Of a DNA stretch of 64,000 nt, positions 17,655-46,968 are shown piece by piece. The notes below the pieces were generated by a model. The model saw nothing but the letters and a program-made list of their open reading frames with translations. It was not told the DNA's origin and did no database searches. The stretch's first letter is position 1, and each line of letters begins with the position of its first letter. Source of the DNA: Gammaproteobacteria bacterium (GTDB lineage: Bacteria > Pseudomonadota > Gammaproteobacteria > Pseudomonadales > Pseudohongiellaceae); contig CAVOFA010000001.1 in assembly GCA_963694865.1 (NCBI GenBank), positions 755-64,754 on the forward strand, in the 5' to 3' direction. The position numbers were made by a program, and so were the translations under genes.

Positions 17655-18323
17655 CTACAGCAAAGACGGCCGGGGATTGAAATAGTGCGTTCCAATTGGC
17701 AGGGTCAGAATATAGTCGACTAGTTGCTGATAGTCATCATCATTTGCGACTAAATCTATCTCGGCACAATTTACTATAAGCAGGGAAGTGCCCTTGAAAT
17801 AGTGAAAGAACTCGGCGTAGGCATCATTCAGATTCTGCAGATAGCTCAATTCTATAAGCTGTTCCGCCTCTATGCCGCGTTTTCGAACTCTGTCAAGAAG
17901 CACGGAAGTGGGGGCCTGCAGGTAGATTACCAGGTTCGGGGTTGGAGCGTCGATGGTCAGATGCCGGAATACCTTAAGGTAAAGTTCATATTCTTCCGGA
18001 TCCAGATTTTGCTGTGCGAATAACATGTCTTTATCAATGAGAAAATCCGCCACCCGGACCGGTTCGAACATGTCATTTTGACGTAGTTCCTGAATTTGCT
18101 GCGAGCGCTGAAACAGAAAGAACAATTGCGTTGATAGCGCATACTGTCTGGGGTTTTGGTAGAAGCGCTGCAGAAAGGGATTTTCATCGCTGTTTTCCAG
18201 CAAGACATCGTAGTTGAAACTTGCCGCGAGTCTCTTTGCCAGGCTGGTTTTACCAACGCCTATAGGACCTTCAATTGCAATGAAACGAGGTAGTTCCCTG
18301 ACGAAGGCGGCGTTCTGTGTCAC
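17655..18323 (-). CDS. Deoxynucleoside kinase family protein
   Basis: 222 aa with a P-loop (IAIEGPIGVGKTSLAKRL) and dNK-like blocks. Its GTG start overlaps the pcnB stop (GTGA at 18320-18323). Confidence 0.8.
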   Translation of the reverse strand: MTQNAAFVRELPRFIAIEGPIGVGKTSLAKRLAASFNYDVLLENSDENPFLQRFYQNPRQYALSTQLFFLFQRSQQIQELRQNDMFEPVRVADFLIDKDMLFAQQNLDPEEYELYLKVFRHLTIDAPTPNLVIYLQAPTSVLLDRVRKRGIEAEQLIELSYLQNLNDAYAEFFHYFKGTSLLIVNCAEIDLVANDDDYQQLVDYILTLPIGTHYFNPRPSLL

Positions 18324-19675
18324 TCGGTGTTACCGGAGGGTTTGCGTTTGCGACGACGTCTGCGTTTGCTTCCAGATTGCTCCACCGCTCCCGTTATTCC
18401 AGCTCGCTGATCGGTATCAGCGATTTGGAAGTCCGTCCACCATTGGCCCAGCATATTGAGTTCTTCGCCGGCCTCTTCTCTCAACAGCAGAAAATCGTAG
18501 GCTGCGCGAAAACGGGGGTGGTTAAATGTGCTCTCAATGCTACGGCGATTGTGCTTTTCAATGCGCAGTTGCAGTTCCCATATTTCTTTTGCAGCCAGCG
18601 TGAAGCGTTTGGGAATTGCCGTGAAATCCAGTTGCTCACGTAAGGTGGCATTGGCCGCTTGTTGGAAGCGCTGATACTCGCTGCCTTCTGCGCTGGCTGC
18701 CGCTTGCAGGCGTTGTTGTAACACCGGCCAGAGCAATGCCGCGAATAGAAAGTAAGGTGTAACGGATTTTCCCTCAGCTAGGCGGTTGTCTGTGTTACGC
18801 AGCGCCAGGTCCACCAGTGTGCGTTCACAGTCGCCTGCATCTTCCAGCGCCGCCAGGGTTGGTCCAAACAGGTATTTGCCGACTTCGAATTCTCGCAGCA
18901 GGCCAAATGTGACCTCGGCGTGTCCGTTAGTAAATAGTTTAAGGGTCTCATCGAATAATCGTGCTGGCGAGATAGATTCCAGTAAATGGGCCAGTTCGTT
19001 AATGGGGTGCCTGGTGCTGGCCTCGATAGTGAACCCCAGCTTTGCCGAAAACCGAATGGCTCTGAGCATGCGCACCGGGTCTTCCCGATAGCGTGCCGAG
19101 GGGTCGCCAATCATGCGAATTTTTTTGCTTCTCAAATCGTCCATGCCGCCGCTGAAATCCAGCACCTGGAAGTTATTGAGGGTGTAATAGAGTGCATTTA
19201 CCGTGAAATCACGGCGCAGCGCGTCTTCGTTGATGTCGCCGTAGACATTGTCCCGGAGAATCATCCCGGTGCTGGAGTGCGCGGAATCCAGGCCTTTTAT
19301 CTGCCTTCTGGAAGCGTCGTCTGCGATCTGATTCTGGGCGTCATGGTGGGCGCGAAATGTAGTGACTTCAATAATTTCCCGGCCATAGCGAATATGCACA
19401 ATCTTAAAACGTCGGCCTATAATCCGCGCGTTGCGGAATAACTTTCTAAGTTCTTCAGGCGTTGCATTGGTGGTGATGTCGAAGTCTTTGGGCTGCAATC
19501 CCAGCAATAAATCTCGGACCCCGCCGCCTACCAGGTAGGCATGAAATCCTCCGTCAGTTAGTTTGTATAAAACTTTAAGAGCACTGGGGGAAATATTGCT
19601 GCGTGAAACTGTGTGCTGGTCTCGTTCGATCAGCGTTGCGTTTTCAAGTCCCGGTAGCGGGTTGGTGTGAATCAT
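18320..19675 (-). CDS. pcnB: Poly(A) polymerase I
   Basis: 451 aa. It has the nucleotidyltransferase head (LVGGGVRDLLLG, DFDI), a tRNA-NT/PAP body and a basic C-terminal tail (KRRRRRKRK). Confidence 0.9.
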   Translation of the reverse strand: MIHTNPLPGLENATLIERDQHTVSRSNISPSALKVLYKLTDGGFHAYLVGGGVRDLLLGLQPKDFDITTNATPEELRKLFRNARIIGRRFKIVHIRYGREIIEVTTFRAHHDAQNQIADDASRRQIKGLDSAHSSTGMILRDNVYGDINEDALRRDFTVNALYYTLNNFQVLDFSGGMDDLRSKKIRMIGDPSARYREDPVRMLRAIRFSAKLGFTIEASTRHPINELAHLLESISPARLFDETLKLFTNGHAEVTFGLLREFEVGKYLFGPTLAALEDAGDCERTLVDLALRNTDNRLAEGKSVTPYFLFAALLWPVLQQRLQAAASAEGSEYQRFQQAANATLREQLDFTAIPKRFTLAAKEIWELQLRIEKHNRRSIESTFNHPRFRAAYDFLLLREEAGEELNMLGQWWTDFQIADTDQRAGITGAVEQSGSKRRRRRKRKPSGNTE

Positions 19676-19974
19676 TACTTATGGATTCGCTGTGCAGAAG
19701 AGTGGAGGAAAGCCAGGCGCTTGTCTATCCAGTTGACAGGCCTATCAGCAGGAATTTACGCGCTGGTCGACTGCTTGTATCTGAATTCTTAGTGCAAGTT
19801 ATGGTGCAAATAATAGTTCAATACAGCTAGCGTAACACGGACGGCGTTGGATGAAACGGCCTATTGCGGATGAGCGCTTCAGGACTCGCAAGACATTACT
19901 GTATTGTTCGGAGGTGCCCCAGAATCCTGGATGAAACTCAGCCCGGTTTGACTTGTGGTGAGAGGGAAGATCAT

Positions 19975-20002
19975 GGGGGGGGGGTGATTACACCCCCCCC
20001 CC
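19975..20002. repeat. G10-TGATTACA-C10 palindrome (12-bp stem, 4-nt loop) built from two homopolymer tracts
   Basis: Direct reading gives G x10 at 19975-19984, tgattaca at 19985-19992 and C x10 at 19993-20002. T85-A92 and G86-C91 extend the stem, and the loop is ATTA. Confidence 0.95.
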
Positions 20003-20247
20003 AAGGGAAGAAAAGAGATTTTATTATTATTGCTATTATTTGTGTGGTTATTATTGTTATGTAATCGGTACCAATAACGGCACCCCAAAGCTACAAGGCG
20101 ATACCTCCCCAACCGGTGACAATAAGCCACCTCTGGCCAGGAACTCGACCTTATTATTATTTAATGCACTAACCTTAGTTGTTTAACTCAGTAATGCTAT
20201 TCTTGTTTTTATTGGGCTTATTATTATTATTTATTGTTATTATTCCA
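19975..20247 (-). ncRNA. Candidate CrcZ-like A-rich (AAnAAnAA repeat) Hfq/Crc-sequestering sRNA; both ends approximate
   Basis: - It lies in an 831-bp non-coding gap between cbrB and pcnB, the crcZ position in Pseudomonas.
- A sigma-54 -24/-12 element lies just upstream on the minus strand.
- Minus-strand A-rich clusters sit at 20219-20245 (AAUAAUAACAAUAAAUAAUAAUAAUAA), 20199-20213 (AAUAAAAACAAGAAU), 20151-20164 (UUAAAUAAUAAUAA) and 20019-20060 (AUAACAAUAAUAACCACACAAAUAAUAGCAAUAAUAAUAAAA).
- GC stem-loops sit between them (20115-20131 and 20067-20084).
- The G10/C10 hairpin is a possible 3' structure.
- The only ORFs here are repeat artefacts. Confidence 0.6.
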
Positions 20248-20258
20248 GTAATACAAGG

Positions 20259-20273
20259 GCACTTACTGTGCCA
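20259..20273 (-). promoter_or_regulatory. Sigma-54 (-24/-12) promoter candidate for the A-rich RNA
   Basis: The minus strand reads TGGCACAGTAAGTGC, against the consensus TGGCAC-N5-TTGC. The GG-N10-GC spacing is exact. The element is itself palindromic (GGCAC-N5-GTGCC), so its orientation is inferred from the upstream IHF/UAS sites and the downstream A-rich repeats. Confidence 0.55.
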
Positions 20274-20292
20274 GAGTTAAAATATCCATATA

Positions 20293-20305
20293 TATCAAAT
20301 AGTTA
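20293..20305. promoter_or_regulatory. IHF-consensus match between the putative enhancer and the -24/-12 element
   Basis: TATCAAATAGTTA fits WATCAANNNNTTR exactly. It sits in an AT-rich stretch about 20-45 bp upstream of the -24 GG. Confidence 0.35.
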
Positions 20306-20346
20306 AATTTATACACGCTTGAAATTATTTTATTTCTTGGGGTTAT

Positions 20347-20392
20347 TGTTACTTTAAGTCACTTATTTATGAGTAGAAGGGTAGCGGTAACA
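20347..20392. promoter_or_regulatory. TGTTAC ... GTAACA inverted half-sites (putative CbrB enhancer)
   Basis: TGTTAC lies at 20347-20352 and GTAACA at 20387-20392, 34 bp apart. They sit about 75-120 bp upstream of the -24 element on the minus-strand reading. From memory, these hexamers are the half-sites reported for Pseudomonas CbrB, but the published spacing is shorter. Confidence 0.35.
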
Positions 20393-20506: not shown

Positions 20507-21886
20507 TCAAACAGTCTGTTTCTTCTTGCGCTGAATGCCAAAGCGTTGCCTGCGCTCCCACAAACACTTACGACTTATACCCAGTTTTTTGGCGAGATGC
20601 GTTTCATTCATCATGTCTTGATGTTCCAACACGAAGCGTTGAAAGTAGTCTTCAAGAGATAACTCTTCGATTGGTTTTGGCTGTGCTATTGCCGTTGCGG
20701 CGGAAGTTTGTGCTGAAACGGTTTTGACGCTTTCGCCGTCGATAGCAAGTAGCTCTTCGCTGATCTGCTTGGTTTCTGCCAGGACCACCGCTCTTTCGAT
20801 CGCATTTTCCAGTTCGCGAACATTACCAGGCCAGTGATATTCAGCTATTGCGCGGATGGCACCATTGCTATATTTGAGCAGGGGTGTCTTCAGGCGTTTG
20901 CAGGTTCTTTGCAAGATCGCGTCCGCCAGATCCAGAATGTCATTACCCCGTTCTCGCAAGGGCGGGATTAATAAGGTCATGACATTGATGCGGTAATACA
21001 GGTCTTCCCTGAATTCGCCATCGACAACAAGCTGTTTTAGGTTACGATGTGTGGCGGCGACCAGGCGTACATCTACCTTGGTTGATTGCACCGAGCCAAC
21101 TTTTCGGATTTCACTTTCCTGTAATACTCGTAGTAGCCGAGCCTGCGCGTGCAGCGGTAATTCGCCTATTTCGTCCAGAAATAGTGTGCTGCCATTCGCC
21201 GCCTCAACCAGGCCTGTGCGAGTTGCTGTCGCCCCAGTGAATGCGCCTTTCTCGTGGCCGAATAACTCGGATTCAATTAAGTTTTCAGGTATCGCCGCGC
21301 AATTAACCGAGATCATCTCCTGGTCATAGCGGCTGCTTAAATTATGTATCGCCCGTACCACTAATTCTTTGCCGGTACCAGACTCGCCATTAATCAGCAC
21401 AGTTGAACTTGTAAGAGCAACCTTCCTTATTCTGCGTAACAACTCTATCATTTGCGGACAACTGCCGATCATGTCATGAACGGGGGGTATTATTTCTGTG
21501 TCGACTGGTTTGTTCCTGGGTGCAGATTTGGCGTGTTCTCGAATCACTTTCGCTACCGATTCAATGATCTCATTGTGTTCAAATGGTTTTGCAATGTAGT
21601 CCACCGCACCCATTCTCATGGAATCGATCGCCGAGCGAATGCTCGAATAACTTGTCATTATAAGCACCGGCGTGTTGGTTGCCTTAATCAGGTCGGTACC
21701 CGGTGCGCCCGGTAAGCGCAAGTCGCTGATGATGACATCAAAATCGTCCATGTCGTATTTTCCCAGCGATTCCTTTACCGTGCCCGCTTCGCTCACCTGA
21801 TATTTGTGGCGTTCGAGCAGGCGCTTCAATGCCGTGCGAATGACTACTTCGTCTTCAACTACCAAAATCTGGTTCATTTGCGTCAT
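20507..21886 (-). CDS. cbrB: Sigma-54-dependent response regulator, NtrC family (CbrB-like)
   Basis: 459 aa. It has a REC domain (VIISDLRLPG), an AAA+ domain with GESGTGKELVVRAIH and the GAFTGA loop, and a C-terminal HTH (LAKKLGISRKCLWERRQRFGI). It is paired with an SLC5-domain kinase, as in CbrAB. Confidence 0.85.
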   Translation of the reverse strand: MTQMNQILVVEDEVVIRTALKRLLERHKYQVSEAGTVKESLGKYDMDDFDVIISDLRLPGAPGTDLIKATNTPVLIMTSYSSIRSAIDSMRMGAVDYIAKPFEHNEIIESVAKVIREHAKSAPRNKPVDTEIIPPVHDMIGSCPQMIELLRRIRKVALTSSTVLINGESGTGKELVVRAIHNLSSRYDQEMISVNCAAIPENLIESELFGHEKGAFTGATATRTGLVEAANGSTLFLDEIGELPLHAQARLLRVLQESEIRKVGSVQSTKVDVRLVAATHRNLKQLVVDGEFREDLYYRINVMTLLIPPLRERGNDILDLADAILQRTCKRLKTPLLKYSNGAIRAIAEYHWPGNVRELENAIERAVVLAETKQISEELLAIDGESVKTVSAQTSAATAIAQPKPIEELSLEDYFQRFVLEHQDMMNETHLAKKLGISRKCLWERRQRFGIQRKKKQTV

Positions 21887-45462: not shown

Positions 45463-46968
45463 TCAATCTATCAGACGCTTACGCTCGTTGGAGGGGGGGA
45501 TAGCCAGAGCTTCTCTGTACTTGGCGATCGTGCGCCTGGCTACGTTGATACCTTTGTCGTCCAGCAGTTGGGTTATCTTGCTGTCGCTCAGTGGTTTTCT
45601 GGCATTCTCGGCAGAGATGAGCTTCCTCATAATCGCCCGGATTGCCGTCGATGAACATTCGCCTCCGCTCTTGGTTGAAACGTGGCTAGAGAAGAAATAC
45701 TTCAGTTCGAAAATCCCTCGGGGCGTATGCATGTATTTTTGTGTAGTCACGCGAGAAATAGTCGATTCGTGCATGCCGACTGCTTCGGCAATATCGTGAA
45801 GAACCAGCGGCTTCATCGCTTCTTCTCCGTATTCCAGAAATCCTCTTTGGTGTTCGACGATGCGAGTGGAAACCTGCATTAGGGTTTCGTTTCGGCTTTG
45901 TAAACTCTTGATGAACCAACGGGCTTCCTGGAGATTGTCTTTCAAATAATTGTTGTCGGTACTCGAATCGGCACGTTTTACCAGCGCGGCATAGCTGTCA
46001 CAAATTCTTATCTTGGGGGCAGTGTCAGGGTTTAATTCGATTTTCCACTTGCCGGTGTCCGTCTGCTTGGTAACGATTACGTCGGGTATGATATAGCTGG
46101 TGGAGGGCGGGGAGATATTGGCACCAGGGCGTGGGTCCAGACTTTCGATAACCTCGATGACATCTTGTAATTCTGCTTCCTTGAGCTTGGTGCGTCGCAT
46201 CAACTGCGCATAATCGCGATTTCCAAGCAGTTTAATATAATCACGAACAACAAGCTTTGCATTAACGATGGCAATGCTTAGTTCAGCCCCTTCAAATTGA
46301 TTTAATTGTATGAGCAGGCACTCAGACAGGTCTCTGTAGCCGACGCCGACCGGATCAAACTGTTGAATTCGATGTAATACCGCAAGCACCTCATCCAGTT
46401 CAATTTCAGCAGCAGGATTGAAACTAGAGAGTATTGTCTCAAGGTCTACCGTCAACATGCCATTGACATCGATAGCATCGATAATAGAGATCGCTATCGA
46501 ATTGTCCTGCTCCGACATTGGGGTTAGATTCAGTTGCCAGAGCAAATGATCCTGCAGGGTATCGACTGTAGTATTACGAGACTCGAAATCCATGGTGTCA
46601 GCATCGAATGATGCTGAGGACGAATAGGTGGTTGGGTAGACGTCGTCCCAATTACTATCCACTGCCAATTCGCTCGGAACCTGCTCCTGCCAGGTATTTT
46701 CGTCATTGTCTGTCGACGTACTTTCTTCCGGCTTTGATGTCGCCAGTTCAGCAATGTTTTCACTGTTGTTGTTTTCAGTTTCGGCAGGGGGTGGAGCGTC
46801 TTCGTCATCATTGGCTTCCATCAACTCCAACATTGGGTTCGACTCCAATGCTTGATGAATTTCCTGTTGCAGATCCAGCGTTGAGAGCTGCAGAAGACGA
46901 ATAGCTTGCTGCAGCTGTGGCGTCATGGTCAGTTGTTGACCGAGCTTTAGCTGCAGCGAGAGTTTCAT
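45463..46968 (-). CDS. rpoN: RNA polymerase sigma-54 factor
   Basis: 501 aa. It has the Q-rich region I ([25 protein letters not shown]), an acidic region II and the RpoN box ([12 protein letters not shown]). Confidence 0.95.

Follow-up and report, generated by a model that had tools for sequence, protein, structure and literature searches.

A probable CbrB-, sigma-54- and IHF-type enhancer-dependent promoter of a CrcZ-like RNA between cbrB and pcnB in a Pseudohongiella genome

The window, that is, the whole 64,000-nucleotide stretch of DNA that was analysed, carries the gene order cbrA-cbrB-promoter/RNA-pcnB, as in the cbrA-cbrB-crcZ-pcnB arrangement of Pseudomonas, and the promoter stretch (20259-20392) lies inside the 831-bp gap between cbrB and pcnB (Table 1). 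Over residues 325-966, the sensor kinase shares 50% identity with the protein encoded immediately before cbrB in Pseudomonas sp. v388. Since Pfam gave no match on the N-terminus of the kinase, hydropathy and orthology were used for its assignment, and its N-terminal 490 residues contain approximately 13 hydrophobic segments, as expected of CbrA. The adjoining response regulator is 62% identical to the Pseudomonas sp. v388 protein that precedes a CrcZ gene scoring 359.9 bits in Rfam, and its recognition helix has the same sequence, SRKCLWERRQR, as in Pseudomonas. In addition to rpoN, the genome contains ihfA, ihfB and hfq, and it combines a CbrB orthologue possessing the same DNA-reading helix with RpoN, as in organisms with PcrcZ-type promoters. 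Two ihfA-type genes are present (C208:150-431 and C5:1435-1719; 164 and 158 bits, both above the himA cut-off), one of them on a 1.9-kb contig, and the pair could stem either from a gene duplication or from heterogeneous strains in the assembly.

Table 1. Genes and predicted promoter elements, in window coordinates; CbrB subsites are read in the direction of transcription.
Feature	Position	Strand	Remarks
pcnB, downstream neighbour	18320-19675	-	TIGR01942, 502 bits
A-rich CrcZ-like sRNA	19975-20247	-	Ends at G10/C10 hairpin; start predicted
Predicted transcription start	20244-20247	-	Placed 12-15 nt past the C of the -12 element
Sigma-54 -24/-12 element, TGGCAC-N5-GTGC	20259-20273	-	-26 to -12
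IHF core match, WATCAANNNNTTR	20293-20305	+	Exact; ~-58 to -46
R2, proximal CbrB subsite, GTAACA	20347-20352	-	Predicted, ~-105 to -100
TACTCA in the R1 slot, genus consensus TAC-N-CA	20370-20375	-	TAC and CA invariant
GCTAC block abutting F1, F-like second subsite	20381-20385	-	Near-invariant in the genus
F1, distal CbrB subsite, TGTTAC	20387-20392	-	Predicted, ~-145 to -140
cbrB orthologue, 459 aa; receiver, sigma-54 AAA+ activator and C-terminal HTH	20507-21886	-	Pfam Response_reg, Sigma54_activat
cbrA-like sensor kinase, 988 aa	21895-24861	-	HisKA, HATPase and PAS domains
rpoN (sigma-54)	45478-46941 (G000:C1:46232-47695)	-	TIGR02395, 489 bits, above cut-off

Direct reading of the plus strand gives TGTTAC at 20347-20352 and GTAACA at 20387-20392, separated by 34 nt, so that the inverted pair of half-sites named in the original prediction lies exactly where it had been placed. 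In the direction of transcription, these sites become R2 and F1, respectively, and the F1 hexamer is the same as the published one. The letters at 20293-20305 are TATCAAATAGTTA, an exact fit to WATCAANNNNTTR that bears out the predicted IHF match, while the minus strand of 20273-20259 reads TGGCACAGTAAGTGC in the GG-N10-GC form that had likewise been proposed. Two features of PcrcZ-type promoters are accordingly found in the stretch: TGGCACAGTAAGTGC provides an oriented -24/-12 element, and the exact consensus, at which IHF is predicted to bind, stands between enhancer and promoter. Within the enhancer, TACTCA is situated about 17 bp from the centre of F1 and about 23 bp from that of R2, where Pseudomonas has the R1 hexamer GTAACA. 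The first A-rich block follows about 16 nt past the C of the -12 element.

In P. putida, the CbrB enhancer has been described as F1 TGTTAC, N12-14, R1 GTAACA, N15-19 and R2 GTAACA, with subsite centres 20-25 bp apart on one helix face, and promoters with this enhancer require IHF and sigma-N (PMC6296734, PMC8871633). No subsite is essential singly, and spacing possibly outweighs sequence (PMC6296734, PMC8871633). The published arrangement places R2 at a distance of N33-39 from F1, which the N34 of the window fits. The original prediction had regarded the 34-bp spacing as larger, by about two helical turns, than in Pseudomonas CbrB sites; the value stands, but the oddity does not, because the interval is that between F1 and R2 rather than an expanded F1-R1 interval. 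This assignment follows from the offsets to TGGCAC. The hexamers of the window start 119 and 79 nt before it, the three subsites of Pseudomonas sp. v388 start 124, 104 and 82 nt before it, and two loci from other families (L023 and L030) have three canonical hexamers at about 123, 101 and 79 nt; in Marinobacter the offset of R2 is likewise about 80 nt, and Oleispira and Pseudomonas share it. The F1-R2 pair is consequently of the PcrcZ type, both in its gap (34, in a range of 33-39 nt) and in its position approximately 100-150 nt upstream. R1 departs from that type, as TACTCA occurs 11 nt after F1 in place of GTAACA at 12-14 nt. Such a non-canonical R1 does not preclude function, given the dispensability of individual subsites and the weight of spacing over sequence in P. 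putida.

The DNA downstream of cbrB was compared among 21 Pseudohongiella species and 14 loci from other families. In the genus alignment, information content is near zero outside a series of conserved islands, namely TGTTAC-Y-GCTAC, TAC-N-CA, GTAACA, a TA...TTG core, TGGCAY, TGC and, at the 5' end of the RNA, ATAATAACAATAAA. This conserved 5' end is A-rich, and between the islands the DNA has diverged among the 21 loci. F1 is exact in 19/21 genus loci and is located at -118 to -121 from TGGCAC in 20/21; its gap to R2 is most often 34 nt (13 loci), otherwise 35 nt (7 loci) or, at a single locus, 38 nt. R2 itself starts 79 nt before TGGCAC in 14 genus loci, as it does in the window, 80 nt in 6 and 78 nt in 1. 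The IHF 13-mer frame starts exactly 32 nt upstream of TGGCAC throughout the genus (21/21 loci) and in 12 of the 14 loci from other families, with 0-2 mismatches in 33/35 loci and the exact match seen in the window in only 5/35. Both TAC and CA of the R1 slot are invariant in a 19-locus alignment and reach the highest information content among the 21 loci, which indicates that TAC-N-CA is under selection; a CbrB contact at this slot is a guess from the sequence, and GCTAC is a putative protein contact. In effect, the comparative set constitutes a natural mutagenesis of the CbrB enhancer, in which R2 and the IHF core are fixed relative to the promoter, F1 is held within a few bases, and the middle subsite can vary freely. 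This outcome agrees with, and sharpens, the P. putida view that spacing takes precedence over sequence.

Every genus locus has TGGCAY and TGC at the promoter element, with a variable spacer between them. Across the 21 genus loci, the -12 element, which occupies 20259-20262 in the window, takes the forms ATGC, GTGC and CTGC and is never TTGC. TTGC is the consensus -12 sequence of sigma-54 promoters. The GTGC of the window differs from it and was counted against the promoter reading. Within the same GTDB genus, two high-GC genomes that branch deeply (L022 in G019 and L026 in G001) have a cbrB-pcnB gap of just 18-82 nt and are devoid of the promoter and the A-rich RNA at this place; with both missing together, they represent a natural empty site. 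Many Pseudohongiella species also have (G)TTACTRAT about 22-26 nt downstream of R2 and before the IHF core, a motif that may be an extra F-like subsite and is absent from the window, where the equivalent position is about 20318-20328. A covarying hairpin formed by TACCCA and GGGAA between the subsites was considered and rejected, since the alignment revealed no consistent complementarity.

Taken singly, the motifs are unremarkable in frequency. TGGCAC-N7-GC has 4 matches in the window against 3.4 expected from shuffles, which is not above chance, and the IHF 13-mer has 3 against 2.4, again at chance level. These counts are what a fortuitous co-occurrence of short motifs in an AT-rich spacer would require, but such an explanation has practically no probability, as order and spacing are conserved in 21 species and the composite recurs throughout the genus. 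Searched for as TGTTAC-N32-37-GTAACA-N68-78-TGGCAY, the exact composite is present as a single copy in 39/61 Pseudohongiella genomes and as two copies in none, whereas the reversed-pattern control is found in 0/61. The ordered composite, unlike its single motifs, is far above chance. In this genome, TGTTAC-N33-39-GTAACA occurs once in the whole 3.06 Mb, and the present locus is the only one with both exact hexamers upstream of a sigma-54-like site. A promoter profile run with nhmmer against the genome returned one match with an E value of 7e-31, followed by the next at 0.53, and neither this profile nor the hexamer and sigma-54 search detected further CbrB targets there.

The same results bear on the identity of the activator. 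Instead of CbrB, a different regulator might recognise the hexamer pair, for instance another of the roughly ten sigma-54 activators, given that ten matches to the activator family exist in this genome (G000), that the CbrB hexamers are short, and that a strict CbrB consensus could not be derived in a P. putida study. This is very unlikely, however, because the hexamers are the experimentally defined CbrB subsites, the site adjoins cbrB itself, the recognition helix of CbrB is the same as in Pseudomonas, and the composite is unique in the genome.

The strand on which the promoter fires was another matter of doubt. In the window, the -24/-12 element forms the palindrome GGCAC-N5-GTGCC, in which GG-N10-GC is readable on both strands, and the terminator scan lists this palindrome as terminator-like with a 5-bp stem. 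Both properties would suit a sigma-54 promoter on the plus strand, or a small hairpin or terminator, and the original prediction held that the promoter alone does not fix the strand. The inverted repeat is indeed present, but the ambiguity is removed by comparison: the reverse reading is possible in only 3/21 genus loci and in 0/14 others (3/35), and the cbrB-to-pcnB direction is the sole GG-N10-GC reading in 18/21 genus loci. Because the palindrome is not conserved, the terminator-like call is also weak. Furthermore, the enhancer and the IHF frame are placed for firing toward lower coordinates, as are the conserved RNA and the conserved T that precedes GG, and the plus-strand side lacks conserved sequence apart from the enhancer. 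A plus-strand promoter or a hairpin at this site can hence be given a probability close to nil. A scan for sigma-70 promoters yielded matches no more numerous than those in shuffled sequence.

Downstream of the minus-strand promoter, the putative product resembles CrcZ without reaching the family threshold. At the gathering threshold, Rfam has no match in the window; below it, CrcZ (RF01675) matches 19950-20243 with 28.6 bits (E 1.9e-5), short of the gathering score of 95, so that the at least 95 bits of Rfam CrcZ membership are not attained, and the Pseudomonas control locus (L033) scores 359.9 bits. The Rfam alignment begins at 20243, beside the predicted start. Within 1 kb downstream of cbrB, AANAANAA has 16 matches, all of which fall in the cbrB-pcnB spacer. 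The hairpin that ends the RNA, G10-N8-C10 at 19975-20002 on the minus strand, is followed by AUGAUCUUCCC in place of a U tract and is therefore not a canonical intrinsic terminator.

On the minus strand, a scan of the interval from the cbrB stop codon (20507) to the enhancer detected no terminator, and partial read-through from cbrB is consequently possible; such read-through has been reported in P. putida (PMC8871633). In its strong form, this route would mean that the RNA arises mostly from the cbrB promoter by read-through and processing, with the sigma-54 element playing a minor part, for which the terminator-free interval would speak. We consider this improbable, since the purifying selection on TGGCAY-N6-TGC, the IHF frame, the hexamers and their spacing, seen in 21 species and several families, is hard to explain with an unimportant promoter, although the two routes are compatible with each other.

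The stretch is thus very probably a CbrB/sigma-54/IHF enhancer-dependent promoter of a CrcZ-like RNA encoded between cbrB and pcnB, and most likely serves to switch on a small RNA of carbon control. The elements with their order and spacing, their uniqueness and conservation, the orthology of CbrB and the presence of the factor genes are direct observations of this analysis. Together, synteny, the recognition helix, the factor genes and the conservation footprint support, at the level of sequence, the original proposal of an activator-dependent sigma-54 layout firing toward lower coordinates. In the proposed mechanism, CbrA, encoded just upstream, would activate CbrB. The activated CbrB would occupy an enhancer composed of F1 TGTTAC, the adjoining GCTAC, TAC-N-CA in the R1 slot and R2 GTAACA, between about -145 and -100. 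IHF, acting at about -58 to -46, would bend the AT-rich spacer and allow the CbrB oligomer to touch sigma-54 RNA polymerase at TGGCAC-N5-GTGC (-26 to -12). ATP hydrolysis would then lead to promoter opening, with transcription expected to start near 20244-20247 on the minus strand. The resulting RNA would be about 270 nt long, contain A-rich repeats and presumably titrate Hfq. Binding, bending, factor dependence and the start site are predictions of this scheme.

The promoter type is an ordinary one, with the architecture of PcrcZ, and it occurs here in the marine genus Pseudohongiella, a lineage without an earlier description of it. The CbrB-, RpoN- and IHF-dependent promoters PcrcZ, PcrcY and PP2810 of P. 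putida and P. aeruginosa likewise stand downstream of cbrB and upstream of pcnB. The locus shares with PcrcZ the placement of TGTTAC and GTAACA on one helix face at about -150 to -100, the F1-R2 distance (N34, within the published 33-39), the IHF site between the enhancer and -24/-12, and an A-rich RNA as product, presumably Hfq-binding here as well. It differs in that the Pseudohongiella R1 is the genus-invariant TAC-N-CA rather than GTAACA, in the additional GCTAC abutting F1, in a -12 element that is [A/G/C]TGC and never TTGC, and in its host, which lies outside the Pseudomonadaceae. NifA- and NtrC-type promoters such as nifH and glnAp2 follow the same general logic, in which an upstream activator sequence acts on a -24/-12 element through a loop assisted by IHF. 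In those systems, however, dimers act on true palindromes, and the half-sites have other sequences, TGT-N10-ACA in the case of NifA, whereas CbrB is reportedly a monomer that acts through separate subsites.

A further difference from the PcrcZ systems is that no Crc-type protein was found in Pseudohongiella. The Crc of Pseudomonas belongs to the NApe subfamily of AP endonucleases. The sole protein of the Crc/NApe subfamily in the genome is encoded outside the window (C5:37526-38317; L115:1471-2265, minus strand) and has about equal scores against the Crc of P. aeruginosa (274 bits; 4jg3) and the NApe of Neisseria (292 bits). It retains the AP-endonuclease motifs QE, GYSG, DWN, WWSNRG and SDH; at the same positions, the Crc of P. 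aeruginosa (4jg3) reads QD, a changed GYSG, SLY, WWP and SQH. Separate degenerate copies of the Crc type are present in Pseudomonas sp. v388, Marinobacter and two sister families, and they are not identically degenerate: the DWN position reads SLY, NWN or NLQ, and SDH is kept in the Marinobacter copy. Among the 31 Pseudohongiella genomes searched, 28 have one Crc/NApe copy, closed promoter-carrying genomes included; the other three have, respectively, a second copy of 42% identity, a gene split over two contig ends, and none, the last genome being incomplete. Four Pfam Exo_endo_phos matches (L119, L122, L118 and L120) were considered as Crc and excluded on the basis of PDB comparison and subfamily alignment.

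Pseudohongiella therefore seems to lack Crc despite possessing cbrAB, hfq and a CrcZ-like RNA, and with a single NApe-type copy that keeps its catalytic motifs in the genus, the circuit may run without Crc. Rather tentatively, the remodelled CbrB enhancer (F1, GCTAC, TAC-N-CA and R2) might drive an Hfq-titrating RNA in a Crc-less circuit, a reading that we hold to be possible and no better than doubtful. If true, it would offer a natural Crc-less form of CbrAB/CrcZ carbon control and a test bed for the reading of non-canonical subsites by CbrB.

Reviews describe CbrAB together with CrcZ as unique to the Pseudomonadaceae, and no paper linking CrcZ with Marinobacter, or CbrB with other families, was found among the open-access papers searched. 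The present comparison indicates a wider distribution in the Pseudomonadales, including Pseudohongiella, Marinobacter, Oleispira and other families, of the whole control module: kinase and activator, enhancer grammar and IHF frame, sigma-54 promoter and A-rich RNA. Two Marinobacter loci (L035 and L039) have the same synteny, R2 about 80 nt before TGGCAC and an IHF-like core at -32, and their CrcZ matches of 49.9 and 57.9 bits are, as in the window, below the gathering score of 95. Each match is found some 180-600 nt past cbrB and is preceded by a sigma-54 promoter that has F1, R1, R2 and an additional F hexamer. With a sub-threshold CrcZ behind a CbrB-type sigma-54 promoter, Marinobacter carries the module too. 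In contrast to the window, its enhancer has a canonical R1 and a second F hexamer (TGTTAC or TGTTCC) near the place of GCTAC, and its F1 and R2 are 53 nt apart from start to start, compared with 40 here. The comparison also yields a simple sequence signature by which RNAs of this kind can be sought in the genomes of marine bacteria not yet in culture. In another family, L030 (G027) has two tandem sigma-54 promoters, at 280 and 619 nt past cbrB. A-rich sequence follows both, in the manner of a CrcZ/CrcY pair, and the second promoter contains TGTTAC-N36-GTAACA without a canonical middle hexamer, like Pseudohongiella.
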